DNA of 64,000 nt from an uncultured bacterium (GCA_937863565.1 CALMGJ010000012.1:124001-188000); one strand, 5' to 3'. Shown: positions 437 to 26,829, counted from the stretch's first letter. Numbers and translations are program-made. Notes: generated from the sequence alone by a model not told the origin.

Positions 437-438
437 GA

Positions 439-513
439 TGGTGGGCTGTGAAGGGCTCGAACCTTCAACCTACTGATTAAGAGTCAGTTGCTCTACCATT
501 GAGCTAACAGCCC
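439..513 (-). tRNA. tRNA-Lys(CTT)
   Basis: Reverse complement GGGCTGTTAGCTCAATGGTAGAGC-ACTGA-CTCTTAA-TCAGT...GGTTCGAGCC...CAGCCCACCA. Confidence 0.95.
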
Positions 514-519
514 TGTTAC

Positions 520-595
520 TGGGGTGGGTGATGGGGGTTGAACCCACAACCGACGGAGCCACAGTCCGTTGCTCTGCCATTGAGCTACACCCACC
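520..595 (-). tRNA. tRNA-His(GTG)
   Basis: Reverse complement G-GTGGGTGTAGCTCAATGGCAGAGC-ACGGA-CTGTGGC-TCCGT...CACCCAC-C-CCA, with the His-specific G-1 and C73. Confidence 0.95.
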
Positions 596-1678: not shown

Positions 1679-1709
1679 GGAAATTTCACCTTTTTCAACC
1701 TCCGTCCCT
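1679..1709 (-). repeat. GGGACGG-core repeat, inverted copy
   Basis: Reverse complement AGGGACGGAGGTTGAAAAAGGTGAAATTTCC is 30/31 identical to 15104-15134. Confidence 0.9.
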
Positions 1710-1727
1710 CTTTACGTCCCTCCTTAC

Positions 1728-2004: not shown

Positions 2005-2476
2005 ATGAATAACACAAATATTAATCCTGAAGGTGAAGCCAGAAACTTCATTGATAGTAATAGGGTTATTCTATAAGCAAGGAGTGAAGGCAAATGTCAT
2101 TTTCTTTGATAATCATCCCGCGAGTGAAAAACCCTGGACAAAAGAGGTCTGGATTTATGATTTCCGTACAAATATTCATTTCACTTTAAAGGAAAATACA
2201 ATGAAGTTTGAAGATCTGAATGATTTTATTCATTGCTACAATCCGGAAAACAGAAAAAAACGGGAAGAAACAGAACGATTTAAGAAATTCACCTATGAAG
2301 AAATAATCGCAAGAGATAAGACCAGTCTTGATATATTCTGGCTTAAAGATGAGAGTCTAACTGATCTTGAAAATCTGCCGGAACCCGATGTGATCCTTTC
2401 GGAAATAGTAGAAAATCTTCAAAATGCATTGGAGCAAATAAAAAATATAAATGGAGGTAAATTAAAAGATGAATAA
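2005..2476 (+). pseudogene. hsdM: Type I R-M remnant: HsdR-like N-terminal stub (2005-2076) joined to an HsdM C-terminal fragment (~2063-2476)
   Basis: GLFYKQGVKANVIFFDN...VWIYDFRTNIHFTLK...RDKTSLDIFWLKDESL...LPEPDVI is the C-terminal region of HsdM. SAM-binding and NPPF motifs are absent. A different frame from ATG 2005 gives MNNTNINPEGEARNFID, like HsdR N-termini. Confidence 0.8.
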
Positions 2477-4331: not shown

Positions 4332-4342
4332 GAGAGAAACAA

Positions 4343-5392
4343 ATGAAATTTTCAAGAGATGATTTAATTATTTTAATTGGTGCAGGAGCAAGCAAGGATG
4401 CAGGTATATTAATATCAAGTGATATGGAAAGAGAGTTAGAAAAACTTGTAAATGAAAATATTGACTGGAAAAAATATAATGATCTATTCTATTTAATAAA
4501 AAGTGGTACAATTTATTCAAACAGTTTAATCCACAAAGAGATTTCATTCAATATTGAAACATTATTAATTGTGTTAGAAGAAATGGAAAAGAAAGTCCAA
4601 CATCCCCTATATCCATTTATTGGCTCTTGGAATATTAGATTTAGTGAGGTAATAAGAGATAATTTTGAGCTTATTAAGAATTTCAAGAAAGATATTATTA
4701 AAGAATTAAAAAAATGGGTAAATATGAAGGATAAATCAAAAGCTCGTTACTATCAGAATTTAAAAAGATTTCAACAGGAAACATCATATCCCCTAAGATT
4801 ATTTAGTTTAAATTATGACTTGTGTGTTGAATCATTGTCAAAAGATTCTAGCGAACCATTTTTAATTGAGCGCGGATTTGATGATAAAAAAGAGTGGGAT
4901 TATAAACGATTTTCTGAGCTTCCAGCAGAGGCACAACCCAATATTTATCTATATAAAATACACGGTTCATTAGATTGGGAGAGAGATTATAATACTGGTA
5001 TAGTATCATATATAGATACTATTGCAGAAATTCCAGATTTAATATTTGGTACTCAGTATAAGCTTCAATATGTAGATCCATATTTATTTCTCTTCTCAGA
5101 ATTGCGTCATTATGTATTTAAAGCAAAAATTATTATATGTATTGGATATAGTTTTTCAGATGAGCATGTTAATGCAATCTTATCACAAGCACTAAAATAC
5201 AGTAGAAAAGTAAAATTATTTTCTGTATCACTAAATATAAATAAAAAAAATATTGCAGGAATACTACAGGTACCAGATGAGGATCAAATAATTACAGAAC
5301 ATAATGTATATGCCAAAGACTTTTTTGAAAATCTATCACTTAAAAAAATAGAGAACATGTATAAGATGGACAAAAATGATGATGTTGTATAA
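4343..5392 (+). CDS. SIR2-like (SIR2_2) NADase effector associated with pAgo
   Basis: IILIGAGAS, FSLNYDLCVE, LYKIHGSLDW and CIGYSFSDEHVN motifs. ATG 4343, 11 nt after the pAgo stop, preferred over GTG 4319. Confidence 0.9.
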   Translation: MKFSRDDLIILIGAGASKDAGILISSDMERELEKLVNENIDWKKYNDLFYLIKSGTIYSNSLIHKEISFNIETLLIVLEEMEKKVQHPLYPFIGSWNIRFSEVIRDNFELIKNFKKDIIKELKKWVNMKDKSKARYYQNLKRFQQETSYPLRLFSLNYDLCVESLSKDSSEPFLIERGFDDKKEWDYKRFSELPAEAQPNIYLYKIHGSLDWERDYNTGIVSYIDTIAEIPDLIFGTQYKLQYVDPYLFLFSELRHYVFKAKIIICIGYSFSDEHVNAILSQALKYSRKVKLFSVSLNINKKNIAGILQVPDEDQIITEHNVYAKDFFENLSLKKIENMYKMDKNDDVV

Positions 5393-8618: not shown

Positions 8619-9359
8619 ATGGATTATGAAAATGCTAAAAATGACATTGTAAGTTTAGGGGGAAAAATTGATAAACATGATTCGCTTTTATTGAAATTAC
8701 TAACGACATTTAGCAAATTTGAAGAAAATATCAAAGGAATACTAGATGCACAAAATATTATAGCAAATAAAATGAATGAAGTTAGTCGAACATATTCTGA
8801 GTTCAATAATCGTTTAAAAAATATAATGACAGAACATGATAATATTATGAAAAGCACAAAAGATGCCAGAGCCAATAGTATACGAGAAATCAATGAGGAA
8901 ACGCAACAACAAATGAAAAAAATAATGGACAATGCTTTACTAAATTCGAAAAATTCAATGTCAGATTTCAACAAAATACTTCAAGATGAAATTAATAAAG
9001 TGGAGGAAAAAATGAATATTTTAAGGAATCGAATTATCGAAATAAATAATGAAAACAAGAAACTAGAAAGTAAATTGAATGATAATGAAAATAATATATA
9101 TAAATTGAATGCTGGTATAAATAATATGAAAAGCAATTTGGATGTATATTCAAAAGAAATAGAAGATATTACAAATAATACTGTAATGTTGGTGCAGAAT
9201 AAAGGAAAAGCTATTATTAATGAAATTAATGATATTATTGAGCAACATAAAAAAGCACTTGATAATTATGCCGGTGAAATGGATAAGAGGCATACTTCAT
9301 TTTTAGATAAGATCAAAAGTTATATTAATGGTATCCGAAATAATATAAAAGAGAAGTGA
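8619..9359 (+). CDS. Coiled-coil hypothetical protein
   Basis: 246 aa, heptad-like, no Pro; AGGAG RBS overlapping the helicase stop, 10-nt gap. Confidence 0.75.
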   Translation: MDYENAKNDIVSLGGKIDKHDSLLLKLLTTFSKFEENIKGILDAQNIIANKMNEVSRTYSEFNNRLKNIMTEHDNIMKSTKDARANSIREINEETQQQMKKIMDNALLNSKNSMSDFNKILQDEINKVEEKMNILRNRIIEINNENKKLESKLNDNENNIYKLNAGINNMKSNLDVYSKEIEDITNNTVMLVQNKGKAIINEINDIIEQHKKALDNYAGEMDKRHTSFLDKIKSYINGIRNNIKEK

Positions 9360-9467
9360 AAACAAGGGAGTACAGATTAAAAATGCAAGAAGATAAAATG
9401 AAATATTTGAATTATATTCACGGAAAATGAAAGAAATGGCGATTGCCTTAAAAGCAAAATGAAGAAA

Positions 9468-9496
9468 AGGGGACGGTGTTATACTTATTATACTTA
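9468..9496 (+). repeat. GGGACGG-core repeat, divergent copy
   Basis: AGGGGACGGTG followed by tandem 9-mers TTATACTTA TTATACTTA. Confidence 0.6.
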
Positions 9497-9530
9497 TCCA
9501 GGTCATTTTACCGGCAACAAATGGTATATT

Positions 9531-9553
9531 AAGCCAATATGCTTGAAAAATCC
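9531..9553 (+). repeat. Repeated promoter module, copy 2 (truncated)
   Basis: AAGCCAATATGCTTGAAAAATCC identical to 5519-5541, then diverges. Confidence 0.75.
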
Positions 9554-9684
9554 TAAGAAGACTTTTTAATATTTGCATATGTGAAAGATATGGCTTTATA
9601 ATATATTTCTTAAGATGGTTTAGTTAAAACAAATAAGTGTTATTCAAAAAACATTAAATGTGAAAGAAATGGTATAATACAAAC

Positions 9685-10449
9685 ATGAGCATATTGATAA
9701 TTCCATGCTACATTAAAAATGCCTATGATGAAAAATGTATTCATAGATTACTTGAAAGTGTAACAAGACAAACAACCCCTTTTGAAAAAGTACTTGTAGT
9801 AGATGATGCCAGTAAATATGCTTATCCTATTTATCAGAAAGAAGTAGAAAAAATAACTATAGCCTCTAATTCTGGACCGGCAAGAGCAAGAAATATCGGG
9901 ATTGAGAAGGCAATCTCATTAAATATAAAGAATATTCTTTTTACAGATCATGACTGTGTTTTAGATGAGAATTGGAATAAAGAGATGTCCAATTGTTTAG
10001 ATAATAACAATTTCGGCGCTGTAGGTGGGATGACATATTCATTCGGAAAAACTATTTATGATAAGTATCACGATTTCAATGGAACTTTAAATGGAAAGTG
10101 GCTTCTACCAAAGAAGCAAGAGTTATGGTATATGCCATCTTTGAATTTTGGTATGAAATCTTATGTTGCAACAGAATTCATTTATGATGAAAAATTTCCT
10201 ACTGCCGCCGGAGAGGATGTTGATTTATGCTTGAGACTGCGAAGCAAATACAAGATAGGTTTTTGTCCCAAGGCTAAATTGTGGCATGATTATGGTTATA
10301 AGGGGCATTATAAGGATTTTAATAAATTCGTAAAACTTTTTATGAAATATAAAAGCTCCAGTGCCACTCTATATGAAGGACATACTGTATTATTGTGGGA
10401 TTCTTCAGAATCGATATATCCTGGAAATATGTATGAGTCTAATATATAA
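9685..10449 (+). CDS. Glycosyltransferase family 2 (GT-A)
   Basis: IIPCY, VVDDAS, GPARARNIG, FTDHDC (DxD), GEDVDLCLRL. Confidence 0.85.
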   Translation: MSILIIPCYIKNAYDEKCIHRLLESVTRQTTPFEKVLVVDDASKYAYPIYQKEVEKITIASNSGPARARNIGIEKAISLNIKNILFTDHDCVLDENWNKEMSNCLDNNNFGAVGGMTYSFGKTIYDKYHDFNGTLNGKWLLPKKQELWYMPSLNFGMKSYVATEFIYDEKFPTAAGEDVDLCLRLRSKYKIGFCPKAKLWHDYGYKGHYKDFNKFVKLFMKYKSSSATLYEGHTVLLWDSSESIYPGNMYESNI

Positions 10450-11449
10450 TATAAAATTTACTAAATCTTCATTTATTAATATATTCAATGACTATTATAG
10501 CGAAGTAAAACACTTCGCAAGAAGAATAAGGAACCCTCTTCTTAAAATATTGATGATCATACTTAAATCAATTGAATGGGGAATTTATCATTGGTATAAA
10601 TCATCGATTAGGCGATTTTATGGAGTAAGAGGAAATGAATTGATTTTCAATATTACTAAGAGATGTAACGAGAAATGTGCAAAATGTGGAATATGGAAAA
10701 ATCCTGAAAAAGATGATGAAAGACTAAGTATTGATGTATTTATCCAATGTTTAAATGCCCTCAAGAAAAACCTATATCAAGTAACTATTACTGGCGGAGA
10801 ACCGCTACTATTTAAGGATGAGATACTGAAAATTGCTAAAGAGGCAAGAGAAAACAACATCCCGGTTGTAACTGTTACAAATGGAGTATTATCAGATGAA
10901 ATATTCGTTCAAAAATATGGGGAAATGAAACATATATTAGTATTTTCGATTGATACGCTGAATAAAGAAAAATGGAAGATATTGCGAGGTACAGCATCAT
11001 ATAACATTGTGATGAATAACCTAAATATTGCGAAAAAAATTCTTGGTAAAAGATTGCAGATTCAGACAGTTTTAGCTAAAGAAAATAAAGACGATATTAA
11101 CGAAATTGTTACTTATTGCAAAAAGAATAATTTAAAACACACAATACAACCATATATGGATTTTGGAGGACATTTACATCCAGTAGAGAAATCAAGCAAT
11201 AATACATCAAATATGCCATGTGCAGCAAGAAAAAATATTGTCATTTTGCAAAATGGGGATGTAATAAAGTGCTTTGATCATTATCGTATTCCATATGCAA
11301 AACTCCCATTAGGTAATATTAAACATGAAGACATTATTACGATATTATGTAAAAGGCGCTCTATTGAAGTATCCAGAATAATGAAATACTGTAATCTGCC
11401 ATGTAAGAATCTTTCGTGTAACATTCCTGCGACAGAGTTCTATGATTAA
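10433..11449 (+). CDS. Radical SAM protein with SPASM/twitch-like C-terminus
   Basis: CNEKCAKC (CxxxCxxC), TGGEPLL, VTNG, FSIDT, and C-terminal C...GDVIKC...LGNI...CNLPCKNLSC. ATG 10433 preferred over GTG 10361. Confidence 0.85.
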   Translation: MSLIYNIKFTKSSFINIFNDYYSEVKHFARRIRNPLLKILMIILKSIEWGIYHWYKSSIRRFYGVRGNELIFNITKRCNEKCAKCGIWKNPEKDDERLSIDVFIQCLNALKKNLYQVTITGGEPLLFKDEILKIAKEARENNIPVVTVTNGVLSDEIFVQKYGEMKHILVFSIDTLNKEKWKILRGTASYNIVMNNLNIAKKILGKRLQIQTVLAKENKDDINEIVTYCKKNNLKHTIQPYMDFGGHLHPVEKSSNNTSNMPCAARKNIVILQNGDVIKCFDHYRIPYAKLPLGNIKHEDIITILCKRRSIEVSRIMKYCNLPCKNLSCNIPATEFYD

Positions 11450-11993
11450 TTATTCCCATAACGATATTATTTTGATAAGAGGCGCACCAACAGCCGGGAA
11501 AACACAGTTATCTAAAAATCTGATTAAATATTACGATAAAGGAGTACGAATTGAAATTGATACATTACGCGCAATGGTCATAAAGCCCAAATGGACTAAT
11601 CAAATAGAACATAAGAGAATATTAAATCTATCAATAAAATTAGTAGAAGGGTTTCTAATAATGCAATTTAGCCCCATAATAATTGTAGATACATTTAGTG
11701 GAAATAAACAGAATGGTTATATAAAATTGCTCAAAGAGAATATACCGGCTGTTCAAATATATAGAATCGGATTATTTGCGGATAAAGAAACAATAATTAA
11801 AAGAGTTGCTGAAAGAAATGTTGATGAGTTCAAAGATGTTGAATGTTGTATAAAATTAAATAATGAAATAATAAATTCTAAAGATGATAATGAATTAAAA
11901 TTAAATACCAGCAAATATTCAATATGCAAATCCTCCAAGATTATTTATGATTATATTGAAGAATCTAAGAAGAAAATATATAGAAGAAAGTAA
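11442..11993 (+). CDS. P-loop kinase-like protein (AAA_33/nucleotide-kinase fold)
   Basis: IILIRGAPTAGKT, IEIDTLR, IIVDT, lid-like IIKRVAER; 8-nt overlap with the rSAM gene. Confidence 0.75.
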   Translation: MINYSHNDIILIRGAPTAGKTQLSKNLIKYYDKGVRIEIDTLRAMVIKPKWTNQIEHKRILNLSIKLVEGFLIMQFSPIIIVDTFSGNKQNGYIKLLKENIPAVQIYRIGLFADKETIIKRVAERNVDEFKDVECCIKLNNEIINSKDDNELKLNTSKYSICKSSKIIYDYIEESKKKIYRRK

Positions 11994-12068
11994 ACACGGA
12001 TCTGAAAAACTGTAGCAGTATCTATTTCTTAAAATAGAATAGGCTTTACTGAATTAAGGGGTTATTAC

Positions 12069-12102
12069 GCCAATATACTTGAAAAATCCCCGTAAAAGTG
12101 CT
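12069..12102 (+). repeat. Repeated promoter module, copy 3
   Basis: GCCAATATACTTGAAAAATCCCCGTAAAAGTGCT, 33/34 identical to 5521-5554. Confidence 0.8.
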
Positions 12103-12218
12103 TAAATATTATCAAATGAAAAGGGTTGCTATTCAAAGTAGAATATTTTCTGAAAATCGAGGGTGGTACTTCAGAATTATAAAGAAATTATTGAAAAGGA
12201 AAAAATAAGGAGGCGAAT

Positions 12219-14039
12219 GTGGCGACACAATCAAGTAGCGCACAAAACCGAGTATTAGGAGATTGGTATAACATGATTAAACTTGGGCAAATTAAACTAC
12301 CTAGATTTCAAAGAATGGAAGCATGGGATAGAAATAGAATAAAAAATTTTATCGATACGATATTTAAAAACCTACCAGTTGGAGTAGCCCTTGTATATGA
12401 AAAGGGAGATAAAGACAATTTTATTAGTAGGTTTATTTCAACTGCAGAACCGGATACAACTGAAAGACATACGGAATATTTACTGGATGGTCAGCAACGA
12501 TTAACTGCTTTATGGAGGGTTCTTCACAATAATTATGAAAGTGAAAAATATTTTTTGTACCTGCCGGAATATGATAATTACGATGATGGAATAGAATATG
12601 AAGAAATGACAGTATATTGTCAGGCTCGGTGGTCAAAAAAAGAGAAACAATATCCTTTATGGGCTGATGATCCTGGAATTTGTTATAAAAAGGGACTAAT
12701 ACCAACCGAATTATTTAATCCGGAATTTGGCGAAGTTAAAACAAATGAATGGATCGACCTAGCGACGAGCAATCTTAAACCAATGAATAAAGCAGATCCG
12801 GATATTATTGATAAAATAGAAAAATACAACAGTGTTAAAACAGATCTTCAAAAAATTATTATGCAAACTAGAGAAAGCTTAAAGCATTTTAATTTGCCGT
12901 ATTTATCATTACCCGTATCAACACATAAAGAGATAGCCTTGCAGGTGTTTATCAATATGAATACAAACAGCAAACCACTTTCATTATATGATATCATTGT
13001 TGCCGAGGTTGAAGGAGAAAAAGGTGAATCTCTACATGAACTACAGGACACTTTGGATAGACGAAACGAAAATATAAAAAGATACTTTGATTTATCAAAT
13101 TTAATACTATCAACTTCTGCCTTATTACAAAATAAACTGCCCAATAATCGCGGAATGCTTGAAATGAATAAGGCCATAATGGTAGAAAAATGGGAGACGC
13201 TATGTATATGTTTAGAAAGAATGGCGGAATTTCTTGAACGGAACAGGATATATGATAAACAGAGACTTCCTACAAATGCTGTTTTGGGAGTAATTGCAGC
13301 GAGTTATTCCGAAATACCTGATACAGGAGATTTAAGAGGGAAGTGGGAACTTCTTTTAAAAAAATATTTGTGGTCTTCATTTTTTACAGATCGTTACGAG
13401 AATTCAGCAGCTTCGAAAGCATTTGTTGATTATCAAAATATTATAAATATTATTAAAGGAAATACTAAAGAAGATGGTTCTTTATATGAAGAGCAAGACG
13501 TTCCTGTATTAAATAGAAAAGAACATCCCCTTGCAGATGTAGAAGAACTATTGACTATTGGATGGCCAAAACAGGAAACAATTCGAGGCAGAGGTATCTT
13601 GGCAGTAGCGAATTACATGGGTGCACAAGATTTTGCCGATGGGCAACCCTTAAACCAGTATAATATTGATAAAAGAGAATACCATCATTTATATCCGGAT
13701 GCACTATTAAAAGAGGCAAAAATCGATAGCTATAAAGCCCTTAACTGCGCATTGATAACCTGGAAAACAAATAGAATAATTGGGCGAACTGATCCATTAA
13801 CATATATCAAAGAACGTTCTGAATGGACAGATGAAGCTATAGTGGAAAAAAGATTAAGAAGCCATATAATACCGGTGAAAGAGCTCAAAACAGGTGGTTA
13901 TGAAAATTATACTGGAGAAGATAAAATCAATAAGATAAAAGTCGATTACGAGAACTTTTTAAATCAAAGGGCTCAACGAATAGTTAAAGCGGCATACGCG
14001 TTAGCGAATGGAGAGGAAATTGACAATATATTTGAATAA
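12219..14039 (+). CDS. DUF262 / GmrSD-like type IV restriction protein with C-terminal HNH-like motif
   Basis: LPRFQRMEAW, LLDGQQRLTAL, FINMNTNSKPLS (DUF262); EYHHLYP...LNCALITWKTNRII; AGGAGG RBS before GTG. Confidence 0.85.
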   Translation: MATQSSSAQNRVLGDWYNMIKLGQIKLPRFQRMEAWDRNRIKNFIDTIFKNLPVGVALVYEKGDKDNFISRFISTAEPDTTERHTEYLLDGQQRLTALWRVLHNNYESEKYFLYLPEYDNYDDGIEYEEMTVYCQARWSKKEKQYPLWADDPGICYKKGLIPTELFNPEFGEVKTNEWIDLATSNLKPMNKADPDIIDKIEKYNSVKTDLQKIIMQTRESLKHFNLPYLSLPVSTHKEIALQVFINMNTNSKPLSLYDIIVAEVEGEKGESLHELQDTLDRRNENIKRYFDLSNLILSTSALLQNKLPNNRGMLEMNKAIMVEKWETLCICLERMAEFLERNRIYDKQRLPTNAVLGVIAASYSEIPDTGDLRGKWELLLKKYLWSSFFTDRYENSAASKAFVDYQNIINIIKGNTKEDGSLYEEQDVPVLNRKEHPLADVEELLTIGWPKQETIRGRGILAVANYMGAQDFADGQPLNQYNIDKREYHHLYPDALLKEAKIDSYKALNCALITWKTNRIIGRTDPLTYIKERSEWTDEAIVEKRLRSHIIPVKELKTGGYENYTGEDKINKIKVDYENFLNQRAQRIVKAAYALANGEEIDNIFE

Positions 14040-14119
14040 CCTATCTTTGAATGGTTAAATAATCCAATGGAGCGCAATATTAAAAAACCAATTCGCTTTC
14101 CACAAAAAGGAGAAGATCT

Positions 14120-15100
14120 ATGACATTACTAGAATTGGCCTATAAAGTTTTAAAGAAAACAAAGCGTCCGATGAACAATAGAGAGATATGGGAATATGGA
14201 AAACGGCATGGTTTTTTCAAAGAATCTGATTTTCAAGGACAAACACCTTGGAGTTCTCTCGGTGCTCAAATATATGTGAACATGAAAAATAATAAAGATT
14301 GTGTTTTTGCGATAACAGAAACACGCCCAAGAAGATTTTTATTAAAATCATGGGGAAATTATAAGAAAAGACCCGGTGATTCTCATAAAAATGATATTAA
14401 AAGAAATAAACACATCTCTCAACAGCAATTGGTAATGGAGTATGCGGAGAATCTTTCATCCGAACTATTTTATACCAACAAAGAGGTTATTCTGAATTTT
14501 ATAAAAGGAAAGCAGGGCATATACGCTCTATATCATGGGAATAGATTATTTTATGTCGGGTTGGCTTCCTATATGCACATCAGATTAAAACAGCATCTAA
14601 ATGATCGTCTTGCCGATAAGTGGGATAGATTCAGCATATATCTCACAAAAAATACCGAATACCTGAAAGAGATGGAATCTCTGGTTCTGAGGATAGCGCA
14701 TCCGGTAGGGAACAAGGCCGGCGGCAAATTCGTTGCGGCAAAACACTTAATGAGTGAGATCAAACAGTACTATTTCGAGCAAAAGACGAAAGAGGCACAC
14801 AAATTATTCGGGGATGCTTATTCTGAAAAAAAGAAAACGGATAAGAAAGTCAAACAAGAAGGAACATCAAAACTGACTATGACAAAAATCCCGATTAAAA
14901 TGACATATAAAGGTAATGTGCATCAAGGATATTATTTCCCGAGCGGACAAGTAAAGACACATAATACGATGTATAATTCACCAACCGCCGCTGCGCTATC
15001 TAATATGCCGGGCAGACCAGCTGTAAACGGCTGGATAAAATGGAAATATAAAGACCAATCCGGGAAATGGATCCTCCTTGATAATTTAAGAAAAAAATAA
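14120..15100 (+). CDS. HARE-HTH / GIY-YIG / RAMA-like nuclease
   Basis: N-terminal LAYKVLKK...GQTPWSSLGAQIY (HARE-HTH), central GIYALY...FYVGLA...RLKQH...KEMESL (GIY-YIG), C-terminal YNSPTAAA...VNGWIKWK (RAMA-like). Confidence 0.75.
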   Translation: MTLLELAYKVLKKTKRPMNNREIWEYGKRHGFFKESDFQGQTPWSSLGAQIYVNMKNNKDCVFAITETRPRRFLLKSWGNYKKRPGDSHKNDIKRNKHISQQQLVMEYAENLSSELFYTNKEVILNFIKGKQGIYALYHGNRLFYVGLASYMHIRLKQHLNDRLADKWDRFSIYLTKNTEYLKEMESLVLRIAHPVGNKAGGKFVAAKHLMSEIKQYYFEQKTKEAHKLFGDAYSEKKKTDKKVKQEGTSKLTMTKIPIKMTYKGNVHQGYYFPSGQVKTHNTMYNSPTAAALSNMPGRPAVNGWIKWKYKDQSGKWILLDNLRKK

Positions 15101-15103
15101 ATC

Positions 15104-15134
15104 AGGGACGGTGGTTGAAAAAGGTGAAATTTCC
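15104..15134 (+). repeat. GGGACGG-core repeat
   Basis: AGGGACGGTGGTTGAAAAAGGTGAAATTTCC, 3 nt after the stop of the GIY-YIG gene. Confidence 0.9.
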
Positions 15135-15182
15135 TGAAGGGTGGATCCGTACGAAATGAGTAATAATTTAAAGGAGAAATAA

Positions 15183-15509
15183 ATGATTGTAACAACAACG
15201 GAGACGGTAGAGGGCAAGAAGGTCGGCAGATATCTCGGACTGGTCCACGGAGAGACGATATACGGGATGAACATAATAAAGGATTTCTTCGCGTCCATTA
15301 CCGATGTTATCGGAGGAAGGGCCGGCGTATATGAAGACGGCTTGAGAAAGGCCAGGGATAACGCCCTTTCGGAGATGGAGGGCAATGCCGTGAAACTGGG
15401 CGCGGATGGGATCATCGGGTTGAAATACGACGCGGAAGTGATATCCTTTGCACAGGGCGGACATATGCTCATCTATACCGTCACCGGCACGGCGGTGAAA
15501 TTAAGTTAA
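15183..15509 (+). CDS. YbjQ / UPF0145 family protein
   Basis: MIVTTTETVEG...GLVHGETIYGMNIIKDFFASITDVIGGR...LGADGIIG...TGTAVKL. Confidence 0.9.
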   Translation: MIVTTTETVEGKKVGRYLGLVHGETIYGMNIIKDFFASITDVIGGRAGVYEDGLRKARDNALSEMEGNAVKLGADGIIGLKYDAEVISFAQGGHMLIYTVTGTAVKLS

Positions 15510-15510
15510 T

Positions 15511-15552
15511 AGGGGACGGTAATCGGGGACGGTCGTTGAAATTGTTAAGTAA
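15511..15552 (+). repeat. Tandem GGGACGG-core repeats
   Basis: AGGGGACGGT-AATC-GGGGACGGTC-GTTGAAATT-GTTAAGTAA, 1 nt after the YbjQ stop. Confidence 0.75.
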
Positions 15553-15844
15553 ATATGAGCAGATAAACAAGAATAAAAAGAGGATAATATCGGTATCGGA
15601 TCTTAGGGAATACGAATACTGCAGTATATCCTGGTGTACCACGAAAGGTCTTGGCGGTCACACTAAGAAAAATATTAGCGTAAAAGATAAGAAAGATCAT
15701 ATGAGAGATCTCAGTGTTTCCGATAAAATGAAGACAAGAGGGGATATTGGGCATTGGCTCTATGAGGTAAAAAGAATGTTGGCGATATTGTTTTTCCTGG
15801 CTATTATGGGCGGAATACTGTGGATATTATTGAAGGTCATCTGA
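15536..15844 (+). CDS. Cas4-like nuclease N-terminal half with C-terminal TM helix
   Basis: ISVSDLREYEYCSISW resembles the Cas4 motif carrying the first Fe-S Cys; RGDIGH; hydrophobic tail. TTG start is uncertain. Confidence 0.55.
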   Translation: MKLLSKYEQINKNKKRIISVSDLREYEYCSISWCTTKGLGGHTKKNISVKDKKDHMRDLSVSDKMKTRGDIGHWLYEVKRMLAILFFLAIMGGILWILLKVI

Positions 15845-16338
15845 AAGAGCTCATTATTTTGGGAATATGGCTGATCTCAATGATCATACTGTATATTGCC
15901 ATCTTCGGACAAAGGATATACGGACAATTCACAAAAGGATCATTGAAGTATGAGCGCGAGAACTGCATTATCTTCGGTAAACCGGACAGAATAGTGAAAA
16001 AAGGCGGGCAAACCGTGATATATGAATATAAAACAAGAAAAGCGCCACCCAAACCCTATGGTGATCATATAATGCAAATTGGAACTTATTTTCTGCTTTT
16101 CGAGAATACTTACCGGAAAAGGGCTGATTTCGGGATAATAAAATATAAAGACAGGGAGTTTAGGATAGAAAATTCCAGTGGACTTAGAGAACAGGTGCTG
16201 AATAAAATAGATCTATTCATTAAAGAGACGGAAGACCCCGAGAATATCTTAAGGAATCACAATAATTACGGCAAATGCCATAATTGCCAATACAAAGCCC
16301 TTTGTGCTTCATTTTTAGGTAAGAGGGACATTGATTGA
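15820..16338 (+). CDS. Solo Cas4-like PD-(D/E)XK nuclease with N-terminal TM helix
   Basis: GKPD...IYEYKT, HIMQIGTY (QxxxY) and C-terminal KCHNCQYKALC. Confidence 0.8.
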   Translation: MDIIEGHLKELIILGIWLISMIILYIAIFGQRIYGQFTKGSLKYERENCIIFGKPDRIVKKGGQTVIYEYKTRKAPPKPYGDHIMQIGTYFLLFENTYRKRADFGIIKYKDREFRIENSSGLREQVLNKIDLFIKETEDPENILRNHNNYGKCHNCQYKALCASFLGKRDID

Positions 16339-16358
16339 AATCGAGGGTGAGAAGAATC

Positions 16359-16370
16359 GGGACGGTTCTT
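16359..16370 (+). repeat. GGGACGG-core repeat, short variant
   Basis: GGGACGGTTCTT, 20 nt after the Cas4-like stop. Confidence 0.45.
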
Positions 16371-16446
16371 ATTTTCCGGCGGAAAAGTATAAAAAACCTT
16401 GATTTTGTTTCTAATATATGTTATAAATAACTAATAAGAGAAACAT

Positions 16447-17073
16447 ATGAGGTTTCTGGAGTTCAAAAAGAGACTTATTGACCTGCCCGTATTCGGCCTT
16501 TCCGATATAAGGAAGTCGGCACCCGATCTCGATCCCCGCCGTCTTTATGAATGGGGGAAGAAGAGATATATCATCAAGGTGCATAATGGGCATTATGTCT
16601 TTGCCGAGAAGATCGCGGAACCGGAGATGTTCTTTCTCATAGCGAACAAGATATACAGGCCGTCATATGTATCGCTTGAATCCGCCCTCAGCATATATGG
16701 TCTGATACCGGAACATCCGTATACCGTGACATCGGTGACGACGAGAAAGACCTCCGCTTTTGAAACGCGCGCGGGGAATTATTCATACAGAAAGATAAAG
16801 AAGGAATTGTTTTTCGGATATCAGGTAAAGAAGAACGGTCAGGGTGAATGGCTCCTTGCCTCGCCGGAAAAAGCATTGCTGGACTATATTTATCTGAATG
16901 CGAACATTGAAGATGCAGACGATATCGAGGGACTCAGGATCAATATGGATGAATTGCGTTCCCGCGTGAGCGCCGCGATACTCGGGAATTATACTTCGCT
17001 CATCGGCAATGAAAGAGTGTCAAGATGCGTGAAGATACTGATGAAGGAGGCCGGAAATGTTCGATTATCGTGA
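16447..17073 (+). CDS. abiEi: Type IV TA antitoxin, AbiEi-like
   Basis: wHTH-like N-terminus, PSYVSLESALSIYGLIPE, ASPEKALLD; overlaps the downstream AbiEii. Confidence 0.85.
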   Translation: MRFLEFKKRLIDLPVFGLSDIRKSAPDLDPRRLYEWGKKRYIIKVHNGHYVFAEKIAEPEMFFLIANKIYRPSYVSLESALSIYGLIPEHPYTVTSVTTRKTSAFETRAGNYSYRKIKKELFFGYQVKKNGQGEWLLASPEKALLDYIYLNANIEDADDIEGLRINMDELRSRVSAAILGNYTSLIGNERVSRCVKILMKEAGNVRLS

Positions 17074-17836
17074 GATAGCGAAATTCTACCCGGAGAAGGA
17101 GCGCATATTTAAAAGGCAGCTGCTACGGGAATATCTGCAGTATAAGATACTTGATATCATTTATGGCACTGAAGCGGGGCAGAAGGCGGTCTTCATCGGC
17201 GGCACTGCGATAAGGATAGCATACGGATCTCGCAGGTTCTCGGAGGATATTGATCTTGACGGCCGAAACCTTTCACTCGAAAAATTTAAGGAATTATCGG
17301 AAGTTGTGAAAAGAGAACTCGAATATGACGGTTATGCCGTAGAAATGAAAGTCGTTGCCAAAAACGCTTTCAGATGCTATCTCAAATTCCCGAGACTCCT
17401 TTACGATATGGAGATGTCCGGTTATGAGGAGGAGAAGATACTCATACAACTCGATTCCGAAGAACAGCCCTATGAATATGAACCGGAGGAATTCCTTCTG
17501 AATAAATTCGCCATCCTCTCAAAGATATTCGTGGCGCCTCCCGCTATCCTTCTTTCGCAGAAAATAGCGGCATTCCTCAAAAGAAAGCGGACGAAGGCGC
17601 GGGATATGTATGATATTGTGTATCTATATTCACTGACTACTCCCGATCAGGGGTATCTTGAAAGTGTTCTCGGTATCAAAGATAAGGACGCTTTAAGATC
17701 CGCGCTTTTAGAGAAATGCTCGGGGCTCGACCTTGATGCGATGAAAAAAGAAATAGAGGTGTTCCTTATTGAACCAAAGGATGCGAAGATGATAGGAATG
17801 TTCCCCGAATTCATGAAAAAGAAGTTGACGATCTAA
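17057..17836 (+). CDS. abiEii: Type IV TA toxin, AbiEii nucleotidyltransferase
   Basis: FIGGTAIRIAYGSRRFSEDIDLD, QKIAAF, KARDMYD. Confidence 0.9.
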   Translation: MFDYREIAKFYPEKERIFKRQLLREYLQYKILDIIYGTEAGQKAVFIGGTAIRIAYGSRRFSEDIDLDGRNLSLEKFKELSEVVKRELEYDGYAVEMKVVAKNAFRCYLKFPRLLYDMEMSGYEEEKILIQLDSEEQPYEYEPEEFLLNKFAILSKIFVAPPAILLSQKIAAFLKRKRTKARDMYDIVYLYSLTTPDQGYLESVLGIKDKDALRSALLEKCSGLDLDAMKKEIEVFLIEPKDAKMIGMFPEFMKKKLTI

Positions 17837-17837
17837 G

Positions 17838-17866
17838 AGGGGACGATGGTTGACAATGTTGACAAT
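17838..17866 (+). repeat. GGGACG-core repeat
   Basis: AGGGGACGATG-GTTGACAAT-GTTGACAAT, 1 nt after the AbiEii stop. Confidence 0.8.
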
Positions 17867-18044
17867 AATAAGCGGATAAATACATAAATATTCGGTGATA
17901 ATCAATTAAATTCAAAAATGGGGCATCGCGATCTTATGTAAAAAGCGTTTTACGGCATTTTCATAATTTCAACCGAAAGCGGAAGGATAAGATGCCTTTA
18001 CAAAAGAACGCGGCTGTGCTATAATGGACTAAAAGGAGTGAGCG

Positions 18045-19016
18045 ATGAAAAAATTCCTGCAGAAAAACGACATAATGTCATTTTGGATACTTGCGATCCT
18101 GCTTTCAATTCTGCTGATACCGGCCTTCATTGCCGTTGATAATAAATATCCCGATACATTTAAAGAAGTGGATAAGATCACGCAGGGCAAGGGGTACAAT
18201 ACCAATATTGTCTATTCAGTGCCGATAGTCGGGAAGGTCAAAGGCGGCCTCTGTTGGATATTTATGCTTCTGGTGCTTCCCTTCACGGCATCGCTCTCGG
18301 CCATGATAATGGCCTCTATCACAAAAGGGAAGGACGGTCTCAAGGAGCTTTTCTCGCGTTTCCGGTTCTGGGCTCCGGATATCGGCTGGAAAAAGGGTAT
18401 CAAGATTTGGCTTCAGGCGATCGGGGTACTGCTGTTCATTAACATGCTCAATTCGGTAATGCTCAATTGGGAAGCAGAAGTACCCAAGGGGGATCTTTTT
18501 ACGTTCAACTCTGTTTACGGCTTCCGGGAAATGGTCTTTATTTTCATTACGAGCCTGTTCTTCGACGGCGGAGGCCTTATGGAAGAGGTCGGATGGAGGG
18601 GATTTGCGCTTCCCCGGCTTCAGAAAAAATTCACTCCGCTGAAAGCGAGCATTATCCTTGGCTTGATATGGGCCATATGGCATATGCCGGTCAAGATCAG
18701 TCAGGTGAATCCTTTCAGCGATCTTGCCGGGTTTTTGTTCTTCTATCTTATTTTCTCCATCATATGCATTCTGTTCACTATCGTAATAGTCTATTTCTAC
18801 AACCGCCTTGGCGGAAGCATACTTGTGGCCATCGCGATCCACGGCATGATAAACGATTCTGCCGGCATTCAAAGGATCTTCAATGCGCCCGGCCTTGAAA
18901 TAACCGGCAGCATGGCAACATTTATCCATATTATCCCATTTTTGGTTGCGGCCTTGATCATTCTGTACATCGATCCGAATCTCGGATTAAAGAGAACGGG
19001 AGTTGAGAAAGTGTAA
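18045..19016 (+). CDS. CPBP family intramembrane glutamic endopeptidase (CAAX/Abi protease)
   Basis: MEEVGWRGF, IWAIWH, AIHGMIND; multiple TM segments. Confidence 0.9.
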   Translation: MKKFLQKNDIMSFWILAILLSILLIPAFIAVDNKYPDTFKEVDKITQGKGYNTNIVYSVPIVGKVKGGLCWIFMLLVLPFTASLSAMIMASITKGKDGLKELFSRFRFWAPDIGWKKGIKIWLQAIGVLLFINMLNSVMLNWEAEVPKGDLFTFNSVYGFREMVFIFITSLFFDGGGLMEEVGWRGFALPRLQKKFTPLKASIILGLIWAIWHMPVKISQVNPFSDLAGFLFFYLIFSIICILFTIVIVYFYNRLGGSILVAIAIHGMINDSAGIQRIFNAPGLEITGSMATFIHIIPFLVAALIILYIDPNLGLKRTGVEKV

Positions 19017-19018
19017 CC

Positions 19019-19049
19019 AGGGACGGTGGTTGAAAAAGGTGAAAATTCG
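19019..19049 (+). repeat. GGGACGG-core repeat
   Basis: AGGGACGGTGGTTGAAAAAGGTGAAA identical to the first 26 nt of the 15104 copy; 2 nt after the CPBP stop. Confidence 0.9.
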
Positions 19050-19072
19050 GAGAAGACAAAAGGGGGAGCCGG

Positions 19073-19450
19073 GTGCACTGGTATTTCAGGGTATTGAGTA
19101 AATACGCCTGCTTTGAAGGACGGGCCTCCAGAAGAGAATTCTGGACATTCCATATATACGATTCGATCATATTAATACTGGCAATCATGGCCGATCAATA
19201 TTACGGATTGGCCTTCAAAGGTATTGATATAGGAATGGCTACACTTATCTATGGTTTGATAAGACTCATTCCGATCTATGCCGTGATCGTGAGAAGGCTT
19301 CACGACACAGGGAAAAGCGGCTGGTATTATTTCATACACCTCATTCCATTCGCGGGTCCAGTATTGCTTCTTATCGCGTACCTGACCCCGGGTAATACAG
19401 GGCCGAATCAATACGGCCCCGATCCCCTTACCGAGAATGAATTTCAATAA
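19073..19450 (+). CDS. DUF805 membrane protein (YhaH/YhaI-like)
   Basis: KYACFEGRASRREFW, VRRLHDTGKSGW, GPNQYGPDP. Confidence 0.9.
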   Translation: MHWYFRVLSKYACFEGRASRREFWTFHIYDSIILILAIMADQYYGLAFKGIDIGMATLIYGLIRLIPIYAVIVRRLHDTGKSGWYYFIHLIPFAGPVLLLIAYLTPGNTGPNQYGPDPLTENEFQ

Positions 19451-19469
19451 GAGGGACAAGACAGTGAGG

Positions 19470-19800
<331 letters not shown>

Positions 19801-23856: not shown

Positions 23857-26829
23857 ATGAAAAAGTTCGCAGTTGGGATTTTAATACTGTTTATATATGC
23901 CGGCGCATATACCGCTGATTTTATCGTTACTAATACTAATGATTCCGGCGCCGGTTCTCTTCGACAGGCCATCGCAGATGCTGAGGGGAATACCGGACCG
24001 GATATGATAACGTTTTCCTGTACCGGGACGATATGCATCACTTCCCAATACAATGTCGGCCTTTCTTCCGGAGGTATAAGCATCTTAGGGGATACAGCCC
24101 ACGGGATCATTATTGACGGAACAAATAACAATACGGCCGGCGCGCTCAATTGCTTCAGATTGTATAATAATATCACGCTCTCCGGCCTCGTTATTGTTGG
24201 TTCGCATTCAAACGGGATCTTCGTATACGGAAATAACAATAAAGTGGAGAACTGCTATATCGGAGTAGATTCTGACGGCGTTACCGCGCATGGGAATACG
24301 GAAGAAGGTATTTATATCTATGCCGACAGCGCTAATAATATCATAGGCGGCTCCCCGGAGAAAGGCAATGTGATCTCAGGGAACGGCCAAAGCGGCGTGA
24401 AACTATGGGGTGTCAGCAATAGCAACAATGAAGTAAGCGGAAATCTCATAGGGACCGATCATACGGGGAGTACCGCTGTTCCCAATGCCATATACGGCGT
24501 AAATGTGCAAAACTTCGGAACGGGTAATGTGCTCGGAGGTGATATAGATCTGAAGCCTAATGTTATCTCGGGGAACGATTCTTACGGCATATTCTTAAAG
24601 AGTCTGATAAATTATCCGGAAAGCATATCCGTTATCGGCAATCTAATCGGAACTGACATCACAGGGACTTCGGCTATCCCGAATGGCGGATGCGGAATTT
24701 ACTTGAAGCAGGTCACCAATTTCACGGTAGGCAGTACAGTTGAAAGTGAAAGGAACGTGATCTCCGGAAATCCTGACGGTGTGATAATTTATAATTGCAG
24801 TAATGTGAGCATTACAGGCAATTATATCGGAATAAATATCGACGGAACGGCTATTTTAGGCAATACATCAAACGGTATCCGTATCGAACAGTGCACTTCC
24901 GGGAACACCATAGGCGGCAGTATGGACGGCGCAGGGAATGTGATCGGCGGGAACACAAACGGCATCTATCTTACATCCACGTGCACGGAGAATTATATTG
25001 CCGGGAATTACATAGGGACTGATAGAGCAGCTACTGCGGACCTCGGCAATACAGGATACGGCATATATCTTTACGCTTCTCATTATAATATTATCGGCGG
25101 CCCCGGCGTATTTGAAAAGAACCTTCTATCCCGTAACAACATGAGCGCGATCGAGCTGGAATTCGCAGATTATAACACTATGTCCGGAAATGAGATATTG
25201 TACAATGAGCTTTCAGGCATCCATCTCTATTATGCCGATTATAATATTGTGGGCACATCCGGCGCGGGCAACTGTATATCAGGCAACAGCACCGACGGGA
25301 TCCATGTAGACCGCAGCTATGGGACTATTGTGAAGGGGAACCTGATAGGTACCGGGACTGACGGCATATCGAAATACGGCAATGGACAGTATGGCATCAA
25401 TGACGACTGGAGCTCATTGCAAACCCAGATCGGCGGCTCCGCTCCAGGTGAAGGGAATGTGATCTCGGGGAACGGTTCGGACGGCATCTACAATTACGGA
25501 GTGTCTTTCATTTACGGGAATTTCATCGGAACTGATGAATCGGGTCTTCTTGATCTCGGTAACGGAGGATACGGCATTCAAGTGAGATGTTCTGCCGTCA
25601 TAGGAGGCCGATCGGCGGGTGAAGGCAATATCATCGCATACAATGCTCTGACCGGCGCAGGTTCCCATTATACGAATGATGCGATGGTCGTAGGGAACAG
25701 TTTTTACGGCAATGGAGGCCTCGGGATCGATTTCGGCGATCTCGGACCCGAAGAGAACGATTACGGGGATAACAATTCTCCGACGAATTATCCCGAATTC
25801 ACGATAACGCGGACCGGATTAAATACATTTTCCATAGAGATATTCAACTGGCGCGACGTTGATGTGGATATGTATTTTGTGTCATCAGCCACTCTCGGGA
25901 TCCTCGATGCAGCAGATCCCTCCGGTTACGGTGAGGCATATGAGCTTTTTTACTCCACTACTCTTGCGGCAGGATATGTTACGATAGATGATTTCAATTT
26001 CCCGAACGATGCGGTTATCTGCATGACGGCAACAAGCGCATCTGCGGAGAACACGTCGGAGTTCAGTTATAACCGGCCGATGCCGGGCCAAATTATCAGT
26101 GTGGCCGCTGAGGCAGAGGATCTGCCTTATTATACCAAAGTGGGAACAGGAAACTTACATTTCATGACACTTACGCTTACTCCTTCAATGCCCTATGATG
26201 AACTTACCGGAATGGAATTTACGCTTGGCGGTACAGCACAGGAAGGAGATCTTGAAAGAATAGTTGTTTACATAGATGACGGGAACGGGATCTTAGCTCC
26301 GGAGACGGATACGGTTGCCGGTACCGCAACATTCACTGCGGATATAGCAAAAATACTTTTCCAGGATATAATATTCGGGGAATCTCCTATTCTCATGTTC
26401 GTTGTTGCAGACATTGCCGCCGATGCTCAATTGGATGACGAGATCGCGGTTTCACTGACCTCTTCATCTTCGTTTGAATTTAAGGATCCGACGACCTCGG
26501 CAACGGGCTCCTTTCCGGCGACATCGGACCGGACCGTGCTGATGGATTACGAGAACACGCTTGACGGGCTTTCAGTATATCCGAACCCGGCGGTCCTTGG
26601 CACCGGCGCGAACGCTATCAGGTTCAACGGCCTCACCCGTTCGGCGGTGATAGAGATATTCGATATTTCAGGCAAAAAGGTCTTCGGAACAGAAACCTTC
26701 AATGACTTGTACTATGATTGGAATATCACTGATAATAACGGTGAAAGGATCTCTTCCGGAATCTATGTATACTGCGTGAAAAGCGGAGAAACCCGGAATG
26801 TGACGGGTAAGATCTCGGTTATTAAATAA
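23857..26829 (+). CDS. Secreted parallel beta-helix protein with T9SS type-A/FlgD-like C-terminal domain
   Basis: Signal peptide, VTNTNDSGAGSLRQAI, repeated GNVISGN/GNxIGTD, C-terminal VYPNP...IFDISGKKV...W..TDNNG...SGIYVY...GKISVIK. Confidence 0.85.
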   Translation: MKKFAVGILILFIYAGAYTADFIVTNTNDSGAGSLRQAIADAEGNTGPDMITFSCTGTICITSQYNVGLSSGGISILGDTAHGIIIDGTNNNTAGALNCFRLYNNITLSGLVIVGSHSNGIFVYGNNNKVENCYIGVDSDGVTAHGNTEEGIYIYADSANNIIGGSPEKGNVISGNGQSGVKLWGVSNSNNEVSGNLIGTDHTGSTAVPNAIYGVNVQNFGTGNVLGGDIDLKPNVISGNDSYGIFLKSLINYPESISVIGNLIGTDITGTSAIPNGGCGIYLKQVTNFTVGSTVESERNVISGNPDGVIIYNCSNVSITGNYIGINIDGTAILGNTSNGIRIEQCTSGNTIGGSMDGAGNVIGGNTNGIYLTSTCTENYIAGNYIGTDRAATADLGNTGYGIYLYASHYNIIGGPGVFEKNLLSRNNMSAIELEFADYNTMSGNEILYNELSGIHLYYADYNIVGTSGAGNCISGNSTDGIHVDRSYGTIVKGNLIGTGTDGISKYGNGQYGINDDWSSLQTQIGGSAPGEGNVISGNGSDGIYNYGVSFIYGNFIGTDESGLLDLGNGGYGIQVRCSAVIGGRSAGEGNIIAYNALTGAGSHYTNDAMVVGNSFYGNGGLGIDFGDLGPEENDYGDNNSPTNYPEFTITRTGLNTFSIEIFNWRDVDVDMYFVSSATLGILDAADPSGYGEAYELFYSTTLAAGYVTIDDFNFPNDAVICMTATSASAENTSEFSYNRPMPGQIISVAAEAEDLPYYTKVGTGNLHFMTLTLTPSMPYDELTGMEFTLGGTAQEGDLERIVVYIDDGNGILAPETDTVAGTATFTADIAKILFQDIIFGESPILMFVVADIAADAQLDDEIAVSLTSSSSFEFKDPTTSATGSFPATSDRTVLMDYENTLDGLSVYPNPAVLGTGANAIRFNGLTRSAVIEIFDISGKKVFGTETFNDLYYDWNITDNNGERISSGIYVYCVKSGETRNVTGKISVIK

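Follow-up and report, generated by a model that had tools for sequence, protein, structure and literature searches.

Transposases of the IS200/IS605 group insert directly beside a short flanking sequence, and among the REP (repetitive extragenic palindrome)-associated tyrosine transposases (RAYTs) the largest group is that of the TIRYTs, also called Group 1 RAYTs or subclass 2.1. We analyzed a 64,000-nucleotide stretch of the genome of an uncultured bacterium (GCA_937863565.1 CALMGJ010000012.1:124001-188000), referred to here as the window, in which a repeated module of ~29 nt stands directly behind several unrelated genes of a defense hotspot, and we compared this module with the terminal inverted repeats (TIRs) of these transposases.

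RAYT-like genes that lie between long inverted repeats have been named TIRtrons and their products TIRYTs; in the portion of the text on which we rely, the TIRs share GGGGWSAS and form moderately abundant families that occur as singles, dimers, and groups (Di Nocera 2013, PMC3733652). Subclass 2.1 is described, in the sections used here, by the motifs NHVH, FQ or W[EQ], and Y[IV]HLNP, a C-terminal Bac_DnaA_C, HTH_23, or HTH_28 domain, and no REP; these sections call the GGGG[AT][CG]A[CG] motif unlike DnaA boxes and leave the role of the C-terminal domain open (Quentin 2018, PMC6006769). For Group 1 RAYTs, flanking 16-mers with ~12 genome-wide occurrences are given in the part of the third paper considered here (Bertels 2017, PMC5581495). 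Our literature search on TIRYTs returned no functional study of them.

Judged from sequence and from structural models, the module in the window is very probably the TIR of RAYT-like HUH/Y1 transposases with a C-terminal helix-turn-helix (HTH) domain, that is, of TIRYTs whose gene and TIRs together form a TIRtron. As part of the same interpretation, the copies in the window would be solitary TIRs of two TIRtrons on contigs C29 and C30 of the same assembly, together with copies of types that have no gene in the assembly. We placed the motif in the TIRYT/TIRtron class because all of the defining features that could be tested were present.

A 29-nt Module Recurs in the Window and across the Genome

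The module consists of the core GGGACG(G/A)T followed by two tandem 9-mers, and five full copies lie on the plus strand, starting at 9470, 15105, 15526, 17840, and 19020. The pattern GGGACGRT occurs nine times in the window, always on the plus strand, against 2.94 ± 1.72 expected, and 0 of 100 shuffled sequences got to nine. Judged from their flanks, seven of the nine matches belong to the feature; the two at 21534 and 24025, which lie within long open reading frames (ORFs) and carry no tandem repeat, most likely arose by chance. The repeated GGGACGG motif with tandem 9-mers, noticed in one orientation at 9468-19049 by a first-pass annotation of this DNA, is thus real and well above chance expectation.

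In the assembly of this genome (G000; 2.27 Mb in 38 contigs, 95.5% complete), the bare 8-mer was uninformative, with 154 matches against ~113 expected from composition. An nhmmer profile built from 21 copies gave 46 hits at E values up to 100, and the 27 with E < 0.01 were counted as copies. By the type of their 9-mers, these comprised 12 GAAA, 8 TTGACA, 3 TTGCA, and 2 TATAC copies and 2 others. The profile scan, which the first-pass annotation had proposed, therefore found copies spread genome-wide (21 of the 27 lie outside the window) and enriched in the window, which holds 6 where 0.76 would be expected (Poisson P = 1.4e-4); five copies fall between 9.4 and 19.1 kb, against 0.12 expected (P = 1.6e-7).

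Four of the 27 copies flank two Y1 genes, and the rest are doublets, solitary copies, or copies beside a partial copy. Three doublets are convergent, with spacers of 193-205 bp (C10, C11, and C25). Outside the window, the neighbors of copies are a major facilitator superfamily (MFS) transporter and the tmRNA gene on C30; a methyltransferase, a glycosyltransferase, and a Fic protein on C10; a homocysteine methyltransferase/MTHFR fusion on C25; a DUF975 protein on C11; a Na/Ca exchanger on C2; and an FeS-assembly protein and an AMP-binding enzyme on C38. A replication-strand bias was considered and rejected, the sign of the GC skew around the 27 copies being mixed (14 positive, 12 negative, 1 zero).

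Two Resident Y1 Genes Lie between Inverted Modules

Two Y1_Tnp genes, C30:61637-62500 (plus strand) and C29:77365-78216 (minus strand), are enclosed by convergent modules and encode proteins of 283-287 amino acids. The C30 gene stands between TTGACA-type copies (+61592 and -62535), and the C29 gene between GAAA-type copies (+77337 and -78269). These resident types match the solitary ones, the 8 TTGACA copies corresponding to the C30 TIRs and the 12 GAAA copies to the C29 TIRs. The first-pass annotation had guessed at a mobilizing enzyme whose gene lies elsewhere, such as an HUH/Y1 transposase of the REP-associated kind, and had advised a hunt for Y1 genes; the C29 and C30 genes, flanked by inverted modules, bear out this guess, and 21 of 27 homologs from other genomes share their layout.

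The downstream arm of the C30 TIRtron begins 6 nt past the CCA at the 3' end of the tmRNA gene, which encodes the tag peptide ADNYAYAA (L002 3536-3888); mobile DNA classically inserts at such sites.

A third, distant Y1 gene (C13:15560-16504, minus strand; 26% identical) lies between different inverted repeats. These belong to a second repeat family, AAGGTACCTGGTCTTTA(C/T)(A/T)TTTTAC, which flanks the C13 gene in inverted orientation (C13:15547-16560, L012) and has 11 copies genome-wide, often straight behind a TAA; one of them lies 8 nt past the TATAC-type module at C10 -139393.

The Module Combines a Conserved Core with Gene-specific 9-mers

When one genome per species was scanned with the C29 and C30 proteins, 40 loci were returned, all in uncultured genomes and often several per genome. 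Within the class, every one of 9 genomes had homologs, with 2-15 matches each. The layout was compared in 29 full-length genes, namely the two resident genes and 27 homologs from other uncultured genomes. The core was found on both sides, inverted, in 23 of the 29 (21 of the 27 foreign genes), upstream only in two, downstream only in two, and on neither side in two; two of the incomplete layouts are truncated where the contig ends. In the variable part, identity averaged 88% for the two arms of a single gene and 49% for arms of different genes. Of 50 arms, 34 held a tandem repeat with an identity of 75% or more (period 9 in 25, 8 in 8, and 10 in 1), compared with 6% once the variable part had been shuffled. 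These data show that the 8-nt core is conserved and that the 9-mers are gene-specific and match between the two arms.

The same correspondence appeared within relatives. Solitary copies in the related genome G001 have the same repeat types as its own TIRtrons L075 and L089. A doublet shared by G001 and G004, with conserved flanks, cores, and spacer, carries CTGTTTTT repeats in both arms in one of these two genomes, where the other has TAATTCTT/TAGTTTTT; the arms of this doublet switched together, and the arms and the resident type thus change in concert. A solitary copy near a distant YbjQ-domain paralog is orthologous and stably inherited between G001 and G004. Compared with L071 (G004:C5), the G001 version (L072, G001:C86, ~1830-1860) is interrupted by a 27-bp insert with a short palindrome in it (TCCCGAAAC...GTTCCGGGA); this insert represents yet another, third type of small element that targets the 9-mer region.

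The Y1 Proteins Carry a Candidate DnaA-like C-terminal Domain

The C29 and C30 proteins matched Pfam Y1_Tnp with 51-56 bits (cut-off 23) and gave a weak C-terminal HTH_23 hit. The best NCBIfam model was REP_Tyr_transpos (NF047646; 70.0 and 65.3 bits, below the cut-off of 80), and the NCBIfam IS200 model scored 20-23 bits against a cut-off of 55. H60-V-H62 (the HUH motif) and Y119 in KYxHxNPV were invariant in 29 of 29 sequences, whose alignment shows the motifs NHVH, HVFQ, and KY[MI]H[ML]NPV. An AlphaFold model of the C30 protein (pLDDT, the predicted local distance difference test score, 86.6) had as its best match in the Protein Data Bank 4er8_A (E = 5.6e-8), an E. coli REP-associated tyrosine transposase with a REP hairpin; IS200/IS605 transposases took ranks 2-20.

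C-terminal Pfam matches among the 29 proteins were to HTH_23 (16), HTH_38 (11), HTH_28 (8), HTH_7 (6), and Bac_DnaA_C (2). The last 84 residues folded alone with a pLDDT of 90.7, and an exhaustive alignment of this part against 48,161 chains placed DnaA domain IV in all of the top four ranks: 1l8q (Z 8.4, root mean square deviation 2.0, 83 aligned), 3pvp (Z 8.0, 70 aligned), 8btg (Z 7.9), and 1j1v (Z 7.7, 70 aligned). The fifth-ranked chain is unrelated (Z 6.7). We regard the DnaA-domain-IV-like fold of the modeled C terminus as a consistent lead, not as proof. In a partial Mantel analysis, TIR distance correlated with C-terminal distance given N-terminal distance (r = 0.145, p = 0.014).

The Core End of the Module Adjoins Stop Codons

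In this genome, exactly 3-4 nt separate a co-oriented stop codon from the core in 5 of 27 copies (null 0.76%, P = 1.7e-6), the YbjQ case being left out of the count because of a spurious overlapping ORF, and 9 of 27 copies lie within -15 to +12 nt of a stop (null 12.6%, P = 0.004). The first-pass annotation had called for a test of enrichment near stop codons, and the 3-4-nt class answers it in the affirmative. Among 63 core-plus-tandem instances in a foreign set of 81 loci (382 kb), 20 stood 0-12 nt past a co-oriented stop (null 2.3%), with a P value of 1e-17 that overstates the evidence because several of the foreign loci are orthologous; related genomes are not independent, and the P values are rough. 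Five more ORFs at the foreign loci terminate in the module's own TGA.

Complete TIRtrons have the adjacency at their outer ends as well (on both sides in L028 and L038), and it is thus a feature of the end of the element. In the flank, the three bases next to the core are mostly TTA, ATA, TTG, or ATG, and a flank ending in TA makes a TAG with the G of the core across the junction. The uniform orientation of the copies in the window follows because the core end faces a co-oriented stop and all genes there are on the plus strand. The tight placement of the core end suggests a target rule not yet described. The same placement accounts for the resemblance that such repeats can bear to cassette boundaries where genes are dense and share one strand, as in defense islands, a point of practical use when scanning for new recombination systems.

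How Y1-HTH Enzymes Might Use the Module

Y1 transposases are dimers. Each monomer would bind one 9-mer through its DnaA-domain-IV-like domain, and this contact would bring the Y1 active site to the conserved core. The DNA would be cut and rejoined at the border between the core and its outer flank, which mostly reads W-T-R. The Y1-HTH enzyme would spread the copies, which would persist where insertion is harmless, directly behind genes, and the clustering in the window may reflect a tolerant, recently assembled accessory region with its genes on one strand. By analogy, the function would resemble that of REPs, with direct repeats in place of the hairpin.

Several observations weigh against this interpretation. 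Seven copies (TTGCA, TATAC, and other types) have no cognate gene in the 95.5%-complete assembly, and 16 of 50 arms show only a weak tandem repeat. The DnaA-like Z scores of 7.7-8.4 are within reach of common helical arrangements, as the alignment tool warns, and a Foldseek search with the C-terminal domain returned nothing at E below 0.7. TIR distance also correlated with N-terminal distance given C-terminal distance (r = 0.215, p = 0.002); because the N-terminal part correlates with the TIR at least as well, the covariation may be plain co-divergence. The stop-codon counts rest on the longest ORFs of at least 90 amino acids, a crude definition (96% "coding" fraction), and, as said, draw partly on orthologous loci. 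Finally, the Y1 enzymes studied so far act, to our knowledge, on single-stranded hairpins, and as the module has no hairpin, the combination of a double-strand-binding HTH domain with a single-strand nuclease is conjecture.

Module Copies and Neighboring Genes in the Window

The copies in the window are listed in Table 1. Those behind the RAMA, YbjQ, AbiEii, and CPBP ORFs stand 3-4 nt past the stop codons, as the first-pass annotation had described in substance. The 15105 core lies 4 nt past the stop of a HARE-HTH/RAMA ORF (14120-15100), the 17840 core 3 nt past that of AbiEii (17057-17836), and the 19020 core 3 nt past that of a CPBP/Rce1-like ORF (18045-19016) and 53 nt ahead of a DUF805 ORF. 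The bare core at 15513 is 13 nt ahead of the 15526 module, which has no second copy in the genome, and the 29-mer of the 9470 copy recurs identically at C10 -139393. The TGA of the degenerate 16325 copy terminates a PD-(D/E)XK/Cas4-like ORF (15820-16338), which reads through the copy; the 16325 and 16359 copies lie upstream of an AbiEi/AbiEii pair. The minus-strand copy at 1680-1708 is 24 nt past an Imm5-like ORF and antisense to it. This copy with its partial core, as well as the degenerate 16325 copy, had been overlooked in the first-pass annotation.

Table 1. Copies of the module and its core in the window
Position	Strand	Feature	Support
1680..1708	-	full module, GAAA type, core GGGACGGA + GGTTGAAAAAGGTGAAATTTC; left edge of low-GC island	nhmmer E 2.7e-5
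1714..1720	-	partial core GGGACGT, 6 nt ahead of the full 1680-1708 copy	sequence
9470..9498	+	full module, TATAC type, GGGACGGT + GTTATACTTATTATACTTATC, inside low-GC island	nhmmer E 0.0096
15105..15133	+	full module, GAAA type; right edge of low-GC island	nhmmer E 1.9e-7
15513..15520	+	bare core GGGACGGT, 3 nt past YbjQ stop (ORF 15183-15509)	sequence
15526..15553	+	module, divergent 9-mers CGTTGAAATTGTTAAGTAA	nhmmer E 1.9e-4
16325..16366	+	degenerate copy GGGACATTGATTGA..., then bare core 16359-16366	nhmmer E 15, alone not significant
17840..17868	+	full module, TTGACA type	nhmmer E 6.1e-6
19020..19048	+	full module, GAAA type	nhmmer E 9.1e-7

The long ORFs at 762-31198 are all on the plus strand, in agreement with the first-pass annotation, and so is the absence of a hairpin: ten single-strand DNA folds of the module, from both strands, gave z scores of -0.44 to +1.37 against shuffled controls, and no terminator-like hit overlapped a copy. 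An Rfam search of 1-32 kb found three tRNAs (355-594) and no other RNA family. A mini-ORF or peptide on the opposite strand ("SPFSTNVP") was dropped as a candidate, since other subtypes yield unrelated residues in that frame.

Short duplications consisting of a few flank bases plus the core lie 12-17 nt upstream of a full module at 15513-15533, 1701-1720, L016, and L038, and these may have been left by successive rounds of cleavage and joining at the core. Runs of short AGTGAA-like repeats (AGTGAATAGTGAACAGTGAA...) occur in the window at 1750-1850 and 19470-19710, on C6, C11, C16, C31, and C37, at the contig ends of C10 and C15, at the G001 locus L065, and in many intergenic regions, in relatives too. 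These and other mosaic intergenic repeats often adjoin TIR copies, in a patchwork like that of bacterial interspersed mosaic elements.

A low-GC island at ~1.7-15.1 kb (25-35% GC compared with 47% for the genome) is bracketed by the GAAA copies at 1680-1708 (minus strand) and 15105 (plus strand), which are inverted, with cores facing the island, and identical at 28 of 29 positions. It contains a Piwi protein with SIR2, a UvrD-like helicase, a GT2 protein, a radical-SAM enzyme, GmrSD, and the RAMA protein. A 25-31% GC block at 2469-5392 encodes a 620-amino acid Piwi-domain protein (a short prokaryotic Argonaute, pAgo) followed by a 357-amino acid SIR2_2 protein, which by sequence looks like a short-pAgo/SIR2 defense pair; a 147-amino acid N6_Mtase fragment precedes the Piwi gene. 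The three tRNA genes (355-594, minus strand) lie 1.1 kb left of the island. At 23857-26829, a 990-amino acid beta-helix (NosD-like) protein carries a type IX secretion sorting domain (Por_Secre_tail/CHU_C), and several TPR proteins lie around it.

Cassette Movement, Regulation, and Promoter Function as Alternatives

The first-pass annotation had proposed that the defense hotspot is a cassette array delimited by recombination sites. Direct modules behind genes would be the sites, and Y1-HTH enzymes would excise the gene between same-strand cores and re-insert it as a single-stranded circle, an HUH-based analogue of the integron by which the lineage would build defense islands. If this were true, the 13.4-kb pAgo/SIR2/GmrSD island and the YbjQ, AbiEi-AbiEii, and CPBP units would be cassettes of an HUH-based counterpart of integrons. 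We consider it very unlikely. Co-oriented copies 3-4 nt past the stops of unrelated genes would fit cassette boundaries, as would three ORFs that terminate in the module's TGA and two that take its first G for their TAG stop; stop-codon adjacency is, however, shared by whole TIRtrons and so belongs to element ends rather than to cassettes. The density of copies, five in 9.7 kb where 0.12 would be expected, has to be set against the 21 of 27 that lie outside the window. The first-pass annotation had named scattering behind housekeeping genes without accessory bias as evidence against its proposal; some copies do adjoin housekeeping-type genes (tmRNA, homocysteine methyltransferase/MTHFR, FeS-assembly, Na/Ca exchanger), and the window is enriched (6 of 27 against 0.76).

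Comparison with relatives, which are 64-68% identical in a few genes only, gave a similar picture. An AbiEi/AbiEii pair followed by the module recurs in four genomes of two genera with differing upstream neighbors, as a mobile unit would, and AbiEii homologs in three related genomes have the module at the same place with different tandem repeats in each. However, YbjQ homologs in G001 and G002 (50-52% identity) have no copy, no module stands behind the CPBP ortholog in G001 (61% identity), and the genes between copies have no paralog elsewhere in this genome. A stable unit of gene and motif was rejected on the YbjQ homologs; a distant YbjQ-domain paralog in G004 does have a copy. The comparison of breakpoints suggested in the first-pass annotation, run within a sister genus, found one variable spot, upstream of AbiE, which measures 0.4, 0.85, and 6.9 kb in three related genomes; a copy is present in one only, and the 6.9-kb insert has no module at its edges. 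The 13.4-kb island between two same-type copies (28 of 29 nt identical) and the recurring flank-plus-core duplications (15513/15526, 1714/1708, L016, and L038) would fit cassette movement. Against it, genes between same-strand copies on C10 are antisense to the copies, and G001 and G004 have stably inherited an orthologous solitary copy. With copies genome-wide and relatives' breakpoints that do not track the motif, the cassette array is unsupported. Among metagenome contigs, 67 stretches match the CPBP peptide pattern and none is a relative by tblastn. No recombinase family was present among the long ORFs of 1-32.5 kb, the part of the genome to which the IntI search was confined.

Highly improbable, in our estimate, is a domesticated regulator, in which the Y1-HTH protein is no longer mobile and the solitary modules are operators that control neighboring genes or mark 3' ends. 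Both resident genes have a -35-like hexamer in the 9-mers (which often read TTGACA, TTGAAA, or TTGCAA) and, at a distance of 17 nt, a TATAAT-like box whose end is 5-6 nt short of the ATG; binding there would autoregulate the gene. The same layout was seen in 2 of 21 other genes (strictly 4 of 23 overall), and an SD (Shine-Dalgarno)-like sequence was found instead in 10 of 23; a leaderless promoter inside the TIR was accordingly rejected as a general rule, and autoregulation through a TIR-borne promoter is, on this sequence pattern, possible but not general. Solitary copies and TIRtron genes at orthologous places in relatives point to vertical inheritance, whereas the 2-15 paralogs per genome and the copies that differ between genera fit ongoing turnover. 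The genes beside copies share no function, and within 9300-19500 no promoter-like or terminator-like consensus overlaps any solitary copy, for which reason a sigma-70 promoter or a terminator at these copies was also discarded. RAYTs have themselves been argued to be domesticated, in the part of the work consulted here (Bertels 2017, PMC5581495).

An alternative sigma-factor promoter can be practically dismissed: the genome has rpoN, the TTGCA type fits the GG-N10-GC spacing of sigma-54 sites, and GGGACGGTTGTTGCA aligns to the sigma-54 consensus TGGCACG-N4-TTGCW with one mismatch, but TTGC stands at the -12 place, with the -24/-12 spacing, in the 3 TTGCA-type copies of 27 alone (the others have TTGA or TATA), the modules form convergent pairs around a gene with the 3' side facing gene ends, and the covariation of the two arms has no place in a promoter model.

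Comparison with Known Systems

Integron attC sites share with the module the position of a repeated site right behind the stops of unrelated, co-oriented accessory genes. Unlike them, the module has no imperfect palindrome, the enzyme is of the Y1/HUH type and not an IntI tyrosine recombinase, and no cassette movement is evident. With IS200/IS605 elements (IS608, ISDra2), the Y1 proteins have the HUH/Y1 catalytic fold in common. Those elements have subterminal hairpins on one strand, no inverted ends, and transposases of ~130-150 amino acids without HTH, whereas here the ends are inverted and hairpin-free, the proteins have 283-287 amino acids, and the IS200 model scores 20-23 bits against 55.

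Classical REP/RAYT systems include the best structural match, 4er8. In common with the elements described here, they have a transposase gene enclosed by inverted repeats, further repeats dispersed chiefly behind genes, and types of repeat and enzyme that co-vary within the genome. The differences are the lack of a palindrome and of a GTAG tag, the extra DNA-binding domain, and the NCBIfam score below cut-off; in comparison with REPIN systems, the doublets here have spacers of 160-205 bp.

Subclass 2.1, the Group 1 RAYTs of Bertels, is matched in NHVH, in a Y[IV]HLNP-like motif, in FQ rather than W, in a long protein, and in a C-terminal HTH, as far as the published sections used here describe it. 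The 8 and 12 copies of two types are comparable with the ~12 occurrences per replicon given for the flanking 16-mers. The proteins are 266-290 amino acids long against a median of 238 given there, and the tandem 9-mers beside the core offer candidate sites for the C-terminal domain whose role those sections leave open.

The agreement with TIRtrons extends to a Y1 gene with HUH and Tyr and a RAYT-like fold (4er8_A, E = 5.6e-8), to long inverted repeats, not REP stem-loops, around both resident genes and 23 of 29 genes overall, and to TIR copies away from the gene as singles and doublets (27 copies). The core GGGACGGT, with the preceding G present at 9470, 15526, and 17840, reads GGGGACGG and fits GGGGWSAS at 7 of 8 positions. 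Here the TIR has two parts, an 8-nt core and gene-specific tandem 8-9-mers; the sections of the TIRtron text on which we rely, as distinct from its TIR lists, mention no tandem structure and report no stop adjacency. The host lineage is an uncultured class whose genomes each carry 2-15 paralogs. Both the stop-codon rule and the occurrence of gene-specific 9-mers in tandem next to a DnaA-like domain may thus be undescribed in the TIRYT literature, as far as those portions of text, exclusive of the TIR lists, are concerned. With dozens of paralogs that have the same 8-nt core and each its own 9-mer pair, the lineage is a natural experiment, and it offers a testable model of how a hairpin-free Y1 enzyme might find its DNA, with the DnaA-like domain on 9-bp sites and catalysis at the core.

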